A stretch of DNA of 5,303 nt, taken from the IMG/VR virus record IMGVR_UViG_2690316224_000003, one strand, 5' to 3'. Each line of letters starts with the position of its first letter. The first letter of the stretch is position 1. Source of the stretch: a virus. Lineage: Duplodnaviria > Heunggongvirae > Uroviricota > Caudoviricetes. Made by a program: the position numbers and the translations under genes. Below, piece by piece: positions 1 through 5,303 of this stretch. Under the pieces are notes generated by a model, which was not told the DNA's origin, made no database searches, and saw only the letters and a list, made by a program, of their open reading frames with translations.

Positions 1-281
1 ACATACATGCCGTAAATCTGCCCGACACCATCAATCAGAGGCCAGGGGCGTCCTGTATATGCCTGCGTGGTCAGCAACGAAAGCGACACTTCGCCACCTG
101 TAATTTCAGGATAAAGCACGCCGGAAAGCACGATGCGATCATCACCTGCGCCGATATACTGCCAGCTTGCTGAACGGTTAACGCGTTCATTTTTCACATG
201 CCGCCAGCTTTTGTTTTGCTGTAACTGCTGATGCGGCAATGTGCGCAGCTCAAAAACAAACATGCCGTAGATCATCATCAT
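1..281 (-). CDS. U: Phage tail protein U (P2 gpU-like), N-terminal part; 3' end lies beyond the window start
   Basis: My translation of the minus strand from the ATG at 281 (in-frame ATGs also at 287, 278, 275) gives MMMIYGMFVFELRTLPHQQLQQNKSWRHVKNERVNRSASWQYIGAGDDRIVLSGVLYPEITGGEVSLSLLTTQAYTGRPWPLIDGVGQIYGMYV, open to the window edge. The GVLYPEITGG / PWPL.DG.G.IYGM pattern resembles the P2 gpU family as I remember it. A GAGGAG Shine-Dalgarno at 290-295 overlaps the T stop codon (294-296), and the position directly downstream of T matches the P2 FETUD order. It is absent from the ORF track only because it runs off the window. Confidence 0.72.
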   Translation of the reverse strand, partial: MMMIYGMFVFELRTLPHQQLQQNKSWRHVKNERVNRSASWQYIGAGDDRIVLSGVLYPEITGGEVSLSLLTTQAYTGRPWPLIDGVGQIYGMY

Positions 282-289
282 GGCCATGA

Positions 290-295
290 CTCCTC
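290..295 (-). promoter_or_regulatory. Shine-Dalgarno (GAGGAG) for gene U, overlapping the T stop codon
   Basis: Minus-strand sequence reads TGAGGAGTCATGGCCATGATGATG. The spacing is 8 nt to the ATG at 281 and only 2 nt to the ATG at 287, so 281 is the more likely start. The arrangement suggests translational coupling of T and U. Confidence 0.6.
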
Positions 296-3116
296 AATCT
301 TTATCGTAAAAACTGCCACGCCCGGCACGGGCGCGCCGTTCCATTTCTGCCCTGACCATTTCGCCAATCAGTTTCGCCAGTTCGCGGGGATTCTGTGTAA
401 CAACGTTATGCAGATGAACATGAATTTCACCGCCAAATCCGGAGGCAACAGGCTCCCGGTTACGGGAAGTTGCAGGAACTGATGCCACTGGCGATCGTAT
501 AGCCTCCGCCACCGGGCGGGAGCTGGCCGCAACAACAGGGACCAGCGCCGGAGGCAGCGGAGCCGGAACCACGGGTGTGATAGTAATTGCGGGGGCAGGC
601 TTACTGACCTGCGCAATCTTCCGCTCCTGCCACTCCCCACGAACAGCAAGTGCGCGGGGCAGGTTCTTAAAGACAATATCGCCGGGGCCAATGCGTTTTT
701 TCGTCTCATCAACCAGCTTACCTGTGTTATCAGCAATTTTGCTGAGTCTGCGTAGCGTACCGGTATTGTTGTCTGTGAGCGGTTTGTTGTCTCTGGGTTT
801 ATCGCCTTTTTTGTCGTCGACCTTATCTGACGGGGCCGGGCCGGGAGTCCATGGTTTCTGAACCATTTTCTTGAGAACCGGATCCCATTCCCACATTACA
901 GGAGCCTTTGAAGCGTTCTCTATTTTCTTTCTCGCCCGTTCCGCTTCATCCGGAAGCACTCCGAGCTTTTCAAGTATCCACGCCAGTGAATCCATCAATG
1001 CTTTTGTTGGCGTCAGGACAAGCTCTATCGCTCCACCGAGTACCCTGCCGAATACCTCGCCAGCACTGGTACATTTATCCAGCGTTTCCTTGCTGGACTC
1101 CATCGGTGACAGCAGCGATTTAAACCAGTTAAAGACCTGAATAATCCCATCGCGCACGACATCAAAAACTGGACCGAACCGTTCAAAGGTTTCGCGCAAC
1201 GGAGCCAGCCGTTCCATAATCCCACTGAACACCCCTGCATAAAACGCCTTGATGGGTTCCCAGTATTTCCAGATGAGAACCGCCGCAGCCACAAACGCAG
1301 CAGCAATCAATCCGACCGGGCTGAACAGCGCCCCGATAGCGCCCCCCAGTAACGAAACGGAACCCGTCACCATTCCCCATAGTGCTGGCAGGAGCCTGAC
1401 AGCATTCATTGATCCGGTCAGGAGGGAAAAGCCAAGACGCAGTTTTGCCAGCGGGCCAGCAAGCACACCAATAGCCAACGACAACGAGCCGACCGTTGCA
1501 GTCATCGCCAGCAATGCCCCACCTGCAATCAGTAGCTGGCGCGTCAGTGCCGGATGGGCCTGCGCCAGCGCCGTCACCTTTGATACCACCCGCGTGAGCC
1601 ACTGCGTGACAGAACGCAGCGGACCGTCAATCAGATCTGCAATGCGGATGCGCAACCCTTCCCATGCACTGCCGAGTGATTTCAGATCGCCGTCAAGGTT
1701 GTTGTCCATAACCTTTGCTGTGCGTTCAGCCTCACCGCGCGCGCCTTCAAGTTCTTTTCTCAGTTTGGGTAAGGAGCCGTCACCCGCTGCATCAACGAGC
1801 GCCATAAACGATGTGAAAGCCTCTTCTCCGGCAATGTCCTTAAAGAACGATACCCGGTCAACTTCCCCGTATTTGCGGGTGGCTTTATAAAGGTCGGCCA
1901 GTACATCCTCCATCGGGCGCATTTTGCCGTTCGCGTCAGAGACAGCCACACCCAGCTCTTTCAGCGCCTCTGCTGCCGCCTTTGGCGGTGATGCCAGACG
2001 AGCCAGGCTGGCACGCATTGCCGTCCCGGCATCACTCCCTCTGATGCCCATATTCGCCAGCACGCCCGCCATCGCAGCGGCCTGCTCCAGCGATATTCCC
2101 AGCTTACCCGCCACCGGACCTGCATATTTCATGGTTTCGCCCAGCGCGCGAAGGTCAGTGTTGGTACGGGTAAACGCCGCTGTAAGCGTGTCGCCAACCC
2201 GGTCCATCTGGTCAGCAGAAAGGCCGAACTGCGTCAGGATATTTGAGCCAATATCTGCCGTCTCGCCGAGATCCATACCGCCAGCCGTTGCCATGCTCAG
2301 CACTCCGGGAAGCGCAGCCTGAATGGCCTGCGGTGTGAAGCCTGCCATTGCAAGAAATGCCTGCCCACTGGCGGCATCGCCTGCAGTGAACTGCGTTTCA
2401 GAGCCAAGTTTTAACGCCTGTTCACGCAGCGCCTTAAACTGCGGGCTGTTCTGGTCGATTCGCGTCAGTGCCTGAACGCGGGACATCTCTTTCCCGAACC
2501 CGATCGCAGGCTGCAAAAAACGCCCGGCAGCATAGCTGCCAGCCGCTGCCGCACCAATTGCCAGCGCACCACCTGTTTTCAGTTTTCCCGCGGTTTCCTG
2601 CGCGCGCGAATACCGCTCACGCGCACGTGTTACACGCGCAAGCGCCTGCCGTTCGCGTTCAAGCTGGTTGTTGTACTGTTCGGTGCGTCTGATGGCCTGC
2701 TGGATGGTGTTATCGCTGCCTGTCAGGGAAATGCCGTGGCGTTTCAGCTCTCCGCCAAGCTCCCGCATTTTCTGAATTTCCCGTGTGCGCGATTCATTCA
2801 GGCGTTCAAGCCGGGTGCTTAACTGCTGCATCAGCTTTTGTTGTTTTTCGCTGAGCACTGTACCCGTGCGTTGTAACTGATTAAGGGCGTTAAGCTGGCG
2901 TCGTGCTTTCACGATGCCCGCATCCGCTTTACTGACAGCGTCACGGGCGCGCTCAAATGAACGCGCCTGACGCTCGAGATTTTTGATCGCCCCCTGCGTT
3001 CGCTGGATGGAGTCACCAAACTGCCCCATCAGGCGGCGGGCGTTTTCGGCAGGCCGGGTCAGCCTGTCAACGGCGCTGAAAGCGACCCGGATATCAAGAG
3101 TCTTCATTGTCTGCAT
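294..3116 (-). CDS. T: Phage tail tape measure protein (P2 gpT-like), 940 aa
   Basis: Single long ORF from the track. It has a charged Arg/Glu/Gln/Leu-rich N-terminal ~180 aa (coiled-coil-like), a central region around aa 240-375 (FTAGDAASGQAFLAMAGF...GVLANMGIRGSDAGTAMRASLARL) typical of the tape-measure core, a Gly/Ala/Leu-rich hydrophobic stretch at aa ~527-617 (nt ~1266-1538), and a Pro-rich segment at aa ~838-884 (nt ~465-605). It sits between the chaperone E/E' and U as in P2. The start could instead be the second in-frame ATG at 3107, which has better spacing to a weak GGGA. Confidence 0.9.
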   Translation of the reverse strand: MQTMKTLDIRVAFSAVDRLTRPAENARRLMGQFGDSIQRTQGAIKNLERQARSFERARDAVSKADAGIVKARRQLNALNQLQRTGTVLSEKQQKLMQQLSTRLERLNESRTREIQKMRELGGELKRHGISLTGSDNTIQQAIRRTEQYNNQLERERQALARVTRARERYSRAQETAGKLKTGGALAIGAAAAGSYAAGRFLQPAIGFGKEMSRVQALTRIDQNSPQFKALREQALKLGSETQFTAGDAASGQAFLAMAGFTPQAIQAALPGVLSMATAGGMDLGETADIGSNILTQFGLSADQMDRVGDTLTAAFTRTNTDLRALGETMKYAGPVAGKLGISLEQAAAMAGVLANMGIRGSDAGTAMRASLARLASPPKAAAEALKELGVAVSDANGKMRPMEDVLADLYKATRKYGEVDRVSFFKDIAGEEAFTSFMALVDAAGDGSLPKLRKELEGARGEAERTAKVMDNNLDGDLKSLGSAWEGLRIRIADLIDGPLRSVTQWLTRVVSKVTALAQAHPALTRQLLIAGGALLAMTATVGSLSLAIGVLAGPLAKLRLGFSLLTGSMNAVRLLPALWGMVTGSVSLLGGAIGALFSPVGLIAAAFVAAAVLIWKYWEPIKAFYAGVFSGIMERLAPLRETFERFGPVFDVVRDGIIQVFNWFKSLLSPMESSKETLDKCTSAGEVFGRVLGGAIELVLTPTKALMDSLAWILEKLGVLPDEAERARKKIENASKAPVMWEWDPVLKKMVQKPWTPGPAPSDKVDDKKGDKPRDNKPLTDNNTGTLRRLSKIADNTGKLVDETKKRIGPGDIVFKNLPRALAVRGEWQERKIAQVSKPAPAITITPVVPAPLPPALVPVVAASSRPVAEAIRSPVASVPATSRNREPVASGFGGEIHVHLHNVVTQNPRELAKLIGEMVRAEMERRARAGRGSFYDKD

Positions 3117-3568
3117 TCCCGCTGCGAAGTGCCGCCCGCTCGCGCCAGCTAACCACTTCGCCGGGCGTCATCATGAAGATTTCGAGCGTTCAAGCCGGGT
3201 GCTTAACTGCTGCATCAGCTTTTGTTGTTTTTCGCTGAGCACTGTACCCGTGCGTTGTAACTGATTAAGGGCGTTAAGCTGGCGTCGTGCTTTCAATATG
3301 CCAGCATCCGCTTTACCGACAGCGTCACGGGCGCGCTCAAATGAACGCGCCTGACGCTCGAGATTTTTGATCGCCCCCTGCGTTCGCTGGATGGAGTCAC
3401 CAAACTGCCCCATCAGGCGGCGGGCGTTTTCGGCAGGCCGGGTCAGCCTGTCAACGGCGCTGAAAGCGACCCGGATATCAAGAGTCTTCATTGTCTGCAT
3501 TCCCGCTGCGAAGTGCCGCCCGCTCGCGCCAGCTAACCACTTCGCCGGGCGTCATCATGAAGATTTCG
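2801..3568. repeat. 384-bp direct tandem duplication, copies 2801-3184 and 3185-3568, spanning the T 5' end plus the last 68 bp of E'
   Basis: Base-by-base comparison: 3185-3568 matches 2801-3184 at a constant offset of 384, with 4 substitutions (2912, 2913, 2919, 2933 vs 3296, 3297, 3303, 3317) plus the junction base (2801 g vs 3185 a). The E' tail 3117-3184 is identical to 3501-3568. Confidence 0.9.
3171..3500 (-). pseudogene. Truncated tape-measure N-terminal fragment (T residues 1-105 followed by SKSS and a stop), created by the 384-bp duplication
   Basis: The track ORF 3171..3500 matches T residues 1-105 apart from the S->G and V->L differences, then crosses junction J1 (3184/3185) into E'-tail DNA out of frame and terminates. 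It has the same upstream context as full-length T. Confidence 0.6.
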
Positions 3569-3744
3569 GCGGGCGACCAGTTAAAAATGGCGGCAATATC
3601 CGCCACCAGATCTTCGATGTGCTCAAAGCACACCAGGGTGATTACGCTGCCGTCTCCTGCACGCTCTTCGCGCCAGAGTCTGGCTCGCTCATAAAATTTA
3701 CAGCCACAGCGCACAACTGAATAAAATCGCGTGACGACATTTTT
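3478..3744 (-). pseudogene. Duplicated E' (-1 frame) segment inside the middle repeat copy
   Basis: The track ORF 3478..3714 encodes a 78-aa protein identical to the native E' ORF 4144..4380 despite 3 nucleotide differences, all synonymous. It is preceded by a duplicated A7 slippery run at 3740-3746. Confidence 0.5.
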
Positions 3745-4166
3745 TTAATCATCACTTCATCCAGTCGTGGCGAGGTCACGCGAGGCAACAGCGTGAACAT
3801 GGTATCCGCTTTCAGATTCAGCACATCAGACAGCGACAGACCACGCAGGGATCCCGCCTGCTCAATAGCCCCGGTGATCTCCACATAATGTTGTTTTTCG
3901 CTGAGCACTGTACCCGTGCGTTGTAACTGATTAAGGGCGTTAAGCTGGCGTCGTGCTTTCAATATGCCAGCATCCGCTTTACCGACAGCGTCACGGGCGC
4001 GCTCAAATGAACGCGCCTGACGCTCGAGATTTTTGATCGCCCCCTGCGTTCGCTGGATGGAGTCACCAAACTGCCCCATCAGGCGGCGGGCGTTTTCGGC
4101 AGGCCGGGTCAGCCTGTCAACGGCGCTGAAAGCGACCCGGATGTCAAGAGTCTTCATTGTCTGCAT
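3642..4166 (-). pseudogene. In-frame chimeric ORF: tape-measure N-terminus (aa 1-92), one junction His, then chaperone E residues 44-124
   Basis: The track ORF 3642..4193 reads MQTMKTLDIR...TVLSEKQ then H then YVEITGAIEQ...SVQETAA. The likely start is the ATG at 4166; the track's 4193 is a GTG. Junction J2 lies at ~3888/3889. Whether it is expressed or functional is unknown. Confidence 0.5.
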
Positions 4167-4682
4167 TCCCGCTGCGAAGTGCCGCCCGCTCACGCCAGCT
4201 AACCACTTCGCCGGGCGTCATCATGAAGATTTCGGCGGGCGACCAGTTAAAAATGGCGGCGATATCTGCCACCAGATCTTCGATGTGCTCAAAGCACACC
4301 AGGGTGATTACGCTGCCGTCTCCTGCACGCTCTTCGCGCCAGAGTCTGGCTCGCTCATAAAATTTACAGCCACAGCGCACAACTGAATAAAATCGCGTGA
4401 CGACATTTTTTTAATCATCACTTCATCCAGTCGTGGCGAGGTCACGCGAGGCAACAGCGTGAACATGGTATCCGCTTTCAGATTCAGCACATCAGACAGC
4501 GACAGACCACGCAGGGATCCCGCCTGCTCAATAGCCCCGGTGATCTCCACATATGTGATTTTTTCGCCACCACGCTCAATTGGCCGGGAAAGTTTTACAC
4601 CACGTTCGACAGCCATATCCTCACCTGCCGTCACATCATCCGCTACGGTGTTATTCCGGGTTTCAGTATCGATATCTTTCAT
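4144..4682 (-). CDS. E': Tail assembly chaperone E+E' fusion made by programmed -1 ribosomal frameshift (predicted ~179 aa)
   Basis: Zero-frame codons ATT AAA AAA ATG (4415-4404) lie in a run of 7 A (4406-4412). The -1 frame has a TAA at 4411-4413 and is open from 4410 to the stop at 4144-4146, so a shift in the A-run gives E(1-92) then NVVTRFYSV then the 78-aa track ORF 4144..4380. The 3' end of E' overlaps the T-type start codon at 4164-4166, as in the P2 E/E'/T arrangement. Confidence 0.7.
4308..4682 (-). CDS. E: Tail assembly chaperone E (P2 gpE-like), zero-frame product of 124 aa
   Basis: ORF with a strong Shine-Dalgarno AAGGAG (4690-4695) 7 nt upstream of the ATG at 4680-4682. It lies between tail tube FII and tape measure T, as P2 gene E does, and contains an internal A7 slippery run followed by an open -1 frame. 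Confidence 0.8.
   Translation of the reverse strand: MKDIDTETRNNTVADDVTAGEDMAVERGVKLSRPIERGGEKITYVEITGAIEQAGSLRGLSLSDVLNLKADTMFTLLPRVTSPRLDEVMIKKMSSRDFIQLCAVAVNFMSEPDSGAKSVQETAA
4404..4415 (-). other. Putative -1 programmed frameshift slippery site (A7 run) of E/E'; a duplicate copy lies at 3738-3749
   Basis: Homopolymeric A7 in the mRNA sits exactly where the -1 frame opens. No obvious downstream pseudoknot was assessed. Confidence 0.6.
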
Positions 4683-4689
4683 CAGTTGT

Positions 4690-4695
4690 CTCCTT
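4690..4695 (-). promoter_or_regulatory. Shine-Dalgarno (AAGGAG) for gene E
   Basis: Minus-strand sequence reads CTGAAAAGGAGACAACTGATG, a 7-nt spacer to the start codon. Confidence 0.7.
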
Positions 4696-4705
4696 TTCAG
4701 TCAGA

Positions 4706-4724
4706 GGCGACGCACTGCGCCGCC
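4706..4724 (-). other. GC-rich hairpin in the FII-E intergenic region (8-bp stem, 3-nt loop); not a canonical intrinsic terminator
   Basis: Plus-strand ggcgacgc (4706-4713) pairs with gcgccgcc (4717-4724), with one G-U wobble on the mRNA strand. No U-tract follows on the transcript. Confidence 0.3.
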
Positions 4725-4737
4725 TGCATATTACTTA

Positions 4738-5250
4738 TCAGCCAAGCCCAAGCGCGGAACGAATGCGGTCAGGCACAATGTCCTTGCCGTCCTTCCGGTA
4801 GATGTGGTTCAACAGGTCGATTTCCCACAGCGGGCGATCGTTAACGCTCAGCTTGTAGTAGGTGTTTTTGACAGCGTAAGTGTGTGATGTGGCTTCGCCC
4901 TGTTTGGCCTCCCCCATATCAATTTCCGTCACACGCCCGCGCATCTCGATTTCATACAGATCGCTTTCTGCATCGGTGTAGTATTCACCCGCAAAACGCA
5001 GCAGCGTGCCGTCAATCGTGCCGCCATATTTAAGGAACAGCGCACGAACAGCTCCCCCCATGACAAAACTCGCATCAAGCGCGGAGTCGTCCAGACCGAG
5101 ATCAATACTTACCGCCCCCATCATGCCACCACCACGATAGCTGTCGGTTTTGCGCGTCAGTTTGGGTGGCGTGACGGATGTCACTTTACCCACTTCGTTT
5201 TCACCATCCACAAACAACGTAAAAAAGCGAAGATGTTTTGGTACAGCCAT
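4738..5250 (-). CDS. FII: Major tail tube protein (P2 gpFII-like), 170 aa
   Basis: The track ORF contains PKLTRK..SYRGGGMMGAV..DLGLDD, which matches the contractile-tail tube family as I remember it. A GGAGGTG Shine-Dalgarno lies at 5255-5261. It is immediately upstream of E in P2 order. Confidence 0.88.
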   Translation of the reverse strand: MAVPKHLRFFTLFVDGENEVGKVTSVTPPKLTRKTDSYRGGGMMGAVSIDLGLDDSALDASFVMGGAVRALFLKYGGTIDGTLLRFAGEYYTDAESDLYEIEMRGRVTEIDMGEAKQGEATSHTYAVKNTYYKLSVNDRPLWEIDLLNHIYRKDGKDIVPDRIRSALGLG

Positions 5251-5303
5251 CAGGCACCTCCCAGCACCGCAAATGCGGGACCAAAGAATTCATCAGTAAA
5301 CGA
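5250..5303 (-). CDS. FI: C-terminal 17 codons of the upstream gene, presumably tail sheath (gpFI-like); partial
   Basis: The minus-strand frame ending in TGA at 5250-5252 reads SFTDEFFGPAFAVLGGA then stop, and the stop overlaps the FII start. Identity is inferred from P2 gene order only; the fragment is too short to recognise by sequence. Confidence 0.45.
   Translation of the reverse strand, partial: SFTDEFFGPAFAVLGGA
5255..5261 (-). promoter_or_regulatory. Shine-Dalgarno (GGAGGTG) for FII
   Basis: Minus-strand sequence reads GGGAGGTGCCTGATG. The upstream gene's TGA overlaps the FII ATG (TGATG). Confidence 0.65.

Follow-up and report, generated by a model that had tools for sequence, protein, structure and literature searches.

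The window analysed here, by which we mean the whole stretch of 5,303 nt, carries all of its long ORFs on the minus strand. Because of the ORF list, the frame translations and the Pfam matches, we assign it to a P2-type tail module, and we read it as a P2/P88-type tail operon with predicted genes for the tube FII, E, E+E', the tape measure T and gpU in an E. coli prophage, as follows.

4738-5250, minus strand: tail tube gene FII, a 170-aa ORF (Pfam Phage_tube, E=2e-45)
4308-4682, minus strand: native E, predicted tail assembly chaperone, an ORF of 124 aa (Pfam Phage_TAC_7, 21.7 bits, a weak match that falls under the 25-bit cut-off)
4144-4412, minus strand: native E' extension in the -1 frame, translated from the A7 run (4406-4412) to the stop at 4144 (Pfam Phage_P2_GpE, E=2e-12)
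294-3116, minus strand: full-length tape measure gene T, a 940-aa ORF (Pfam PhageMin_Tail, E=2e-58; also by the annotation of the relative L001)
1-293, minus strand: 5' part of a gpU-like tail gene (Pfam Phage_P2_GpU, E=2e-27)

The gene order, the family signatures and a -1-frame E' that overlaps the T start are all those of a P2-type tail operon, the native E' overlapping here the T start of the third repeat copy described below. Every ORF in the window with a Pfam match is a tail gene. In L001, the homologue of E is annotated as a "tail protein", and the T start that is annotated in homologues corresponds to position 3107.

The nearest public relatives are P88-like prophages of the genus Xuanwuvirus, which occur in about 1,377 of the 5,426 complete E. 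coli genomes (about a quarter) and in 13 phage records; some of these genomes carry two or three relatives, three being the maximum. The FII-E-E+E'-T-U module of these phages (L001-L005) shares its gene order, Pfam families and -1-frame E'/T overlap with the window, but its segments are single-copy, whereas those of the window are duplicated. In fact, every relative examined has one copy of each segment, and the span that measures 1,140 to 1,151 bp in unduplicated relatives reaches 2,201 bp here. The body of T is 86.6 to 99.1% identical to relatives whose E'/T-start region is 99 to 100% identical, and its best match (99.1%) comes from a different strain. Judged by their sequences, P88-like prophages are highly mosaic.

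Repeat architecture and the two joints

Self-alignment of the window gives two periods. With a period of 384, positions 2802-3184 match 3186-3568 with 4 mismatches, and with a period of 666, positions 3223-3887 match 3889-4553, again with 4 mismatches. The resulting layout can be written as X-a-b, A, a-b-c, A, b-c-Y, where segment a is 2802-2838, segment b is 2839-3184 and segment c is the following 319 nt of E'/E, which makes three copies of b and two each of a and c. The repeats are direct and head-to-tail, and neither joint contains foreign DNA beyond one base. The three copies, none of them assigned to a strand, are the following.

2802-3184: repeat copy 1 (a1 + b1), in the T gene and its 68-nt native leader, forming the end of block C (1-3184); 0 mismatches over 383 nt to L001
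3186-3887: repeat copy 2 (a2 + b2 + c2), equal to block B; best natural match 99.6%, with 3 mismatches
3889-4553: repeat copy 3 (b3 + c3), where block A starts, reaching to 5303; b3 has 0 mismatches over 346 nt to L003

The joints and their intact parental breakpoints, which were located by self-alignment and by comparison with relatives, are listed next, also without strand; a caret marks the breakpoint.

3185: joint J1, an extra A between E'-derived ...GATTTCG and T-derived GCGTTCAAG...
3888: joint J2, an extra A between E-derived ...CCACATA and T-derived TGTTGTTTTTCG...
2801-2802: intact T parent of J1, ATTCAG^GCGTTC
3568^3569: intact E' parent of J1, GATTTCG^GCGGGCG, present in L001-L005
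2838-2839, with a second copy at 3222^3223: intact T parent of J2, CAGCTTT^TGTTG (the T side reads CAGCTTT^TGTTGTTTTTCG)
4553-4554: intact E parent of J2, CCACATA^TGTG (the E side reads CCACATA^TGTGATTTTTTCG)

An initial annotation, made from the sequence alone, had placed both duplication junctions at short microhomologies, and most of the strings it quoted match their coordinates, namely ccacatatgtgattttttcg at 4547-4566 for native E, ccacataatgttgtttttcg at 3881-3900 for the hybrid at J2 and gatttcgagcgttc at 3178-3191 for the hybrid at J1. For T at 2838-2850, the coordinates are right but the text contains a one-base slip, the true 13 nt being ttgttgtttttcg. The annotation also proposed aligning the junctions to unduplicated relatives, and this alignment puts the parental breakpoints where they had been deduced: at all four, the parental sequence is present exactly in all five relatives (L001-L005), except at a natural T/C polymorphism in E right after CCACATA, that is, CCACATA[T/C]GTG. 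Each hybrid joint thus consists of the left parent, one A and the right parent, and the "single-base differences at the joint" of the annotation are these added bases at 3185 and 3888. The periods are 384 and 666, instead of the 383 and 665 that a clean microhomology joint would give, because of the one additional A per joint.

In the true register, the two parents agree at the column of the extra base, with G at J1 and T at J2. The hybrid has A in both cases, a base that matches neither parent in the five relatives. On the coding strand, the extra A is a T, and J1 and J2 agree in the strand that bears the scar and in the side of the microhomology on which it lies. For comparison, among 31 E. 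coli amplification junctions, Slack et al. found a 1-bp insertion beside the junction in one isolate, which is unexplained there (PMC1428787). Since such insertions are rare in that collection and the two scars here are identical, they suggest one common error-prone process and not two independent accidents.

Several sources for the extra base were considered. A donor allele was rejected as a general explanation, less firmly for J1, given a single record: the G2801A allele, a synonymous Leu change in T, was found once, in a divergent IMG/VR provirus, while across 1,528 prophage places in about 1,370 E. coli genomes a 75-nt query bearing this variant had no match of at least 99%, and the T2838A allele is absent from all collections searched. 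A register shift, in which the strand pairs at ACA and re-pairs at GCGAAAAA, fits the T at J2 but predicts C and not T at J1. Templating of the J1 base from the opposite arm of a quasi-palindrome hairpin predicts C, not A.

The flush microhomology is GGCG at J1 (4 nt, p=0.020) and TGT at J2 (3 nt, p=0.058), measured against a null for which 200,000 pairs of breakpoints were drawn at random from the collapsed sequence; the product of the two p-values is about 1e-3, and by our own arithmetic Fisher's combined p is about 0.009. The TGT at J2 exists only with the E allele that is carried by one of the five relatives. J2 is also followed, six nucleotides to its right, by a patch of 8 identical nucleotides, TTTTTCGC, which keeps to the 666 register (p about 0.002). 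Gapped imperfect homology, or microhomeology, is not above chance (p=0.63 at J1 and p=0.066 at J2). Thus, the short microhomologies claimed for both junctions do exist, and they are modest. More generally, calls of "microhomology" that rest on 3 to 4 nt require explicit chance controls and allele checks. The patch and one structural feature near the joints are as follows, without strand.

4560-4567: the 8-nt patch TTTTTCGC as it occurs in E; its T counterpart at 3894-3901 is exactly 666 nt away
3539-3576: quasi-palindrome hairpin in the DNA fold of 3530-3610 (plus strand), with the E' breakpoint of J1 (3568^3569) in its 3' arm

Further T copies of the patch are found at 2844-2851 and 3228-3235, and on the coding strand the patch, GCGAAAAA, encodes x-Glu-Lys in the same frame in E and in T. 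The hairpin folds at -17.4 kcal/mol (z=-3.4), with none of 200 shuffles equally good; it is plausible, from the modelled fold, that it acted as a stall site at the E' breakpoint. No comparable fold was seen at the T and E breakpoints.

The initial annotation held that the joints were not a signature of site-specific recombination or transposition, and named recombinase target sites or IS ends at the junctions as the observation that would speak against it. Neither was found when looked for. Around the parental breakpoints there are no terminal inverted repeats and no target-site duplication, the ORF list and the Pfam matches of the window include no transposase or recombinase ORF, and no hix/gix-like site is present even with 3 mismatches allowed; the window also has no Chi site. 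For site-specific recombination, for instance by the neighbouring invertase, transposition or RecA-dependent unequal crossover, one can point to a DNA invertase gene that adjoins gpU in relatives and to a 24-nt imperfect repeat inside T, its second copy beginning precisely where J1 has its breakpoint. Nevertheless, a base is gained at each joint, and a conservative site-specific exchange is excluded because it would add none. The longest exact identity between the partners near the joints is 8 nt, with the crossover outside that patch, whereas RecA-dependent unequal crossover needs tens of bp of homology. An IS-mediated duplication was likewise rejected, the only Pfam matches being those to tail genes. 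We consider this whole group of explanations extremely improbable.

Alleles of the copies and their occurrence elsewhere

The copies differ at 8 positions, namely 2912, 2913, 2919, 2933, 3093, 3142 and the equivalents of 3595 and 3601, and all 8 differences are natural polymorphisms for which both states occur among the five relatives; 6 are synonymous, and the other 2 are conservative changes (S/G and V/L) that also occur naturally. Across the 702-nt unit, no copy has a private base (chance about 5e-9). Segments a1b1 and c2 have 0 mismatches to L001, the same holds for b3 and L003, and positions 4120-4290 are 100% identical in many swine ETEC prophages. Across the window, the allele pattern alternates as P-Q-P-Q, and the joints delimit haplotype blocks, with C at 1-3184, B at 3186-3887 and A at 3889-5303.

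Because all differences between the copies are natural alleles and there are no private bases, these three blocks resemble haplotypes from three phages. A natural parent with an intact haplotype was not confirmed for all three: in the sampled genomes, blocks B and A are nowhere intact, and their best matches are 99.6% for B and 99.4% for A. From this, the lineage would be an unsampled one, and three parents are what we infer from the alleles. Read from the sequence, the pattern fits joins between related but non-identical phage genomes, or else rapid later import of alleles.

These results also bear on the mechanism proposed in the initial annotation, which was replication slippage or illegitimate recombination. 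Illegitimate recombination stands, given the few-nucleotide identity, together with the direct repeat and the absence of foreign DNA that are typical of short-junction tandem duplications. Simple slippage within one genome is unlikely: it predicts a clean joint, but there is an extra A at 3185 and at 3888, and it predicts copies that are identical at birth and later acquire random new mutations, but the differences are natural polymorphisms in all 8 cases.

A related possibility is that two independent slippage or short-junction duplications arose in one prophage, and that alleles were imported afterwards by homologous exchange or gene conversion with related prophages, for instance ones resident in the same cell. 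Either order of the duplications reproduces the structure, the parental breakpoints show microhomology, and the mosaicism of P88-like prophages, together with the E. coli genomes that carry two or three relatives, would provide material for exchange. However, this route requires two rare +1-scarred joints independently (the one isolate among 31 junctions, PMC1428787). It further needs at least 2 later exchanges for the P-Q-P-Q pattern, there is no private mutation in any copy, and no collection contains an intermediate. All of these steps would have to occur within unselected 384-666-bp tandem repeats, and RecA is expected to collapse such repeats quickly. We regard this sequence of events as unlikely, though it deserves some weight.

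The structure is a singleton, a structural variant private to this member of a prophage family that is itself common. Exact k-mers for J1 and J2 (22 to 23 nt) have 0 matches in IMG/VR, the GTDB species representatives and the JGI metagenomes. In BLAST searches of the 5,426 complete E. coli genomes, a query spanning J2 found 0 places covering at least 80% of it, and the top matches of a query spanning J1 are all split in two, with the pieces 384 bp apart as in the parental layout; the phage and plasmid matches are all unduplicated. The initial annotation had suggested searching population data for intermediate structures with only one of the two duplications, and neither such an intermediate nor an independent occurrence of a junction turned up in any collection searched, including the E. 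coli genomes and the protein clusters.

For a structure seen once, an artefact has to be weighed, either in vitro polymerase template switching on related prophages or mis-assembly from chimeric reads, in which case the real genome would be unduplicated. The absence of both junction k-mers and of the junction ORFs from the collections searched is what an artefact would produce, and so are three blocks that look like three different templates. In addition, Sun et al. reported for Salmonella that junctions with less than about 7 to 11 bp of microhomology are indistinguishable from library chimeras (PMC3411829), and the 3 to 4 nt of the joints fall in this range. On the other hand, assemblers cannot invent junction k-mers, and two chimeras 703 nt apart would each need read support at the level of the consensus. 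Chimeras from random ligation would connect arbitrary loci, but J1 and J2 are each direct and local, and outside the joints the window is clean, with intact tail ORFs and no indels versus relatives. An artefact thus seems a minority explanation to us, with perhaps the same claim to attention as two separate duplications.

Template switching as the preferred reading

Illegitimate, homology-independent recombination, probably in the form of serial error-prone template switching among related phage genomes in a P88-like prophage, is the reading that we prefer, and our confidence in it is evenly balanced. MMBIR is a published model of iterative template switching (PMC2621351). A triplication flanked by duplications, together with microhomology and insertions of 1 to 20 bp at the joins, is the published signature of such switching (PMC6902434), and the window contains this duplication-triplication-duplication arrangement, with two copies of a, three of b and two of c.

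On this template-switching reading, the nascent coding (minus) strand would switch template backward during replication. The coding strand is taken as the nascent one because the priming microhomology must sit at the 3' end of the switching strand. For J2, the strand would copy FII, E, E' and T as far as codon 92, after which its 3' end, ...GCGAAAAACAACA, would find a new pairing partner in E at ACA and at the GCGAAAAA patch close by; with one extra T added, copying would resume at codon 44 of E. For J1, E' and 105 codons of T would then be copied, the 3' end ...GAACGC would re-pair at CGC(C) near the end of E', and after the addition of one extra T copying would proceed into full-length T. 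The outcome would be the direct duplication-triplication-duplication observed. The templates would probably be different but close phage genomes in the same cell, as in a polylysogen or a mixed infection, different templates being probable because the three blocks carry different natural alleles. The replicative mechanism, the strand, the single event behind both joints and its occurrence in vivo are all things that we infer.

Some features fit template switching poorly. The register shift accounts for the extra base at J2 (T) but gives C at J1; the shared bases at the breakpoints are few and exceed chance by a modest margin; and the reading asks much of a single cell, in which three relatives would have to replicate together. 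As an observation on the side of template switching, an E. coli genome may carry up to 3 related prophages. The most specific form of the proposal, in which the nascent strand hopped back twice in one event among three co-replicating P88-like genomes and left a +1 T scar each time, is therefore offered tentatively; we find it possible, and clearly less secure than template switching in general.

Sequence alone cannot separate a replicative switch from the joining of double-strand-break ends, through a RecBCD/LigA-type alternative pathway or a Ku/LigD-like one, between sister or related phage genomes, with the extra base as a fill-in or an untemplated addition. The 0 to 4 nt of microhomology and the 1-nt addition at both joints agree with end joining, and near-blunt junctions form the end-joining class in a published scheme. 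Nevertheless, four coordinated breaks within about 1.7 kb would be needed, and both the 8-nt in-register patch at J2 and the E' hairpin suit a replicative switch better. E. coli is not known to have Ku/LigD, which also counts against end joining. We judge this route improbable, below both an artefact and two separate duplications.

The class of rearrangement is already known, and two details are informative here, namely that J1 and J2 both bear a +1 scar and that the copies differ in their alleles. For instance, Slack et al. (2006) described direct tandem repeats with short imperfect homology at the joint, for which the authors invoke template switching, and point changes sometimes beside the joint, including the 1-bp insertion discussed above (PMC1428787). 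Their amplicons measure 7 to 32 kb, have 4 to 15 bp of G-rich homology and arose under selection (PMC1428787), whereas the units in the window measure 384 and 666 bp, with 3 to 4 nt of homology and a +1 at both joints; their copies represent different natural alleles, and nothing points to selection. The FoSTeS/MMBIR rearrangements show the same copy numbers of a, b and c, microhomology with the small insertions mentioned above, and microhomology that borders an imperfect block on one side, which may also be the case at J2 (PMC6902434). Those rearrangements are human, lie at the megabase scale and often have an inverted triplicated segment (PMC6902434), in contrast to the window, where the arrangement is 1 kb in size, all direct and inside a prophage, the templates are apparently distinct genomes, and one event may have made both joints. 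Sun et al. (2012) found short direct repeats at enterobacterial duplication junctions in Salmonella chemostat cultures, and the duplications that they verified experimentally had at least 11 bp of junction microhomology, so that the joints here lie in the ambiguous shorter range (PMC3411829).

Products of the joints and their meaning

The joints create the following ORFs, which were read from the ORF list and its translations.

3642-4166, minus strand: in-frame fusion ORF T(1-92)-His-E(44-124), 174 aa, made by J2, with the junction codon CAT at 3888-3890
3478-3746, minus strand: a second A7 run (3740-3746) and E' frame, with a protein identical to the native one
3171-3500, minus strand: truncated ORF T(1-105)+SKSS, 109 aa, made by J1

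The T-E fusion ORF keeps its own slip site, consisting of the second A7 run and E' frame, and between the end of the T stub and the T start downstream of it there are 55 nt. The window still has E, E+E' and T in intact form, T with 68 nt of its native leader. Among 5.8 billion clusters, no protein spans both halves of the fusion, the matches with 75% coverage being native 124-aa E proteins, and the exact-protein index has no record of the fusion with either of its two possible starts, of the T stub or of full-length T.

There is no sign that frame selection acted on the joints. Both 384 and 666 are divisible by 3, which is a 1-in-9 coincidence, and J2 alone gives an in-frame fusion, while J1 falls outside the E' frame. 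That J2 preserves the frame is explained by the patch, which encodes x-Glu-Lys in the same frame of T and E. As far as their sequences indicate, the T-E fusion and the T stub are by-products, and the rearrangement is probably functionless, neutral or mildly harmful.

What the joints offer is a modest worked example of what was probably joining between related phage genomes. Phage mosaicism is thought to start from this process, but cases in which both parental contexts have survived next to the joint are rarely caught. If a single event among three genomes is the true origin, the window would be a natural snapshot of illegitimate recombination making new joints and gene fusions, and the combination of microhomology with one extra base would be a signature that could be searched for at the mosaic boundaries of other phages.

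Natural variants and an internal repeat at the breakpoints

Natural variants lie at or next to parental breakpoints of the joints (J1 and J2) of the overlapping tandem duplications. Window position 4554, in codon 42 of the tail assembly chaperone gene E (ACA/ACG), carries a natural synonymous T/C polymorphism that coincides precisely with the J2 breakpoint on the E side; the TGT microhomology at this joint exists only with the T allele, which is carried by one of the five unduplicated relatives. For J1, a divergent P88-like provirus (IMGVR_UViG_2713896907_000006) has a synonymous G-to-A variant at about 6100-6121 (reverse complement), at the position of the tape measure gene T just left of the breakpoint. 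Among the natural sequences found, this one alone could make the "extra A" of J1 a donor base.

The T-side breakpoint of J1 is also the exact start, at 2802, of the second copy of a repeat within T, whose copies are spaced 147 nt (49 codons) apart:

2655-2678 versus 2802-2825 (and 3186-3209): 24-nt imperfect direct repeat inside T (GCGTTCAAGC...), 79% identity

This repeat probably reflects coiled-coil periodicity, and its match with the breakpoint is probably a coincidence.

Mosaicism of T and the neighbouring invertase gene

Alignment of the window to its relatives revealed that T is strongly mosaic. Relative to L001, identity is 98-100% over 1-807 and 2802-3184 and only 86.6% over 913-2800, while no alignment to L001 or L002 was obtained for 808-912. 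The best match to the whole body of T is L005 (99.1%), a different strain from L001.

The relatives also encode an invertase immediately beyond the tail gene gpU, adjoining inverted tail-fibre assembly genes, a position just outside the window:

L001 1-173; L002 1-171; L005 2174-2764: serine DNA invertase gene

No link was seen between this gene and the J1 and J2 junctions.

Quasi-palindrome and frameshift site of E/E'

A quasi-palindrome marks the end of E', the -1-frame extension of E:

3539-3576; copies 4205-4242; truncated at 3155-3184: quasi-palindrome just upstream of the T start

As single-stranded DNA, the plus strand folds significantly (z=-3.4); the fold of the mRNA-sense strand is not significant (z=-1.2). 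The element might be relevant to replication stalling or to E'/T translational coupling.

The extension itself is opened by a run of adenines:

4406-4412 and 3740-3746, minus strand: seven-A run, ATT AAA AAA ATG

Because the -1 frame opens at this run, with a TAA stop in that frame directly upstream, the predicted E/E+E' frameshift must fall here. Since the site is intact in its duplicate copy, the T-E fusion, the in-frame ORF created by J2, could undergo frameshifting as well.
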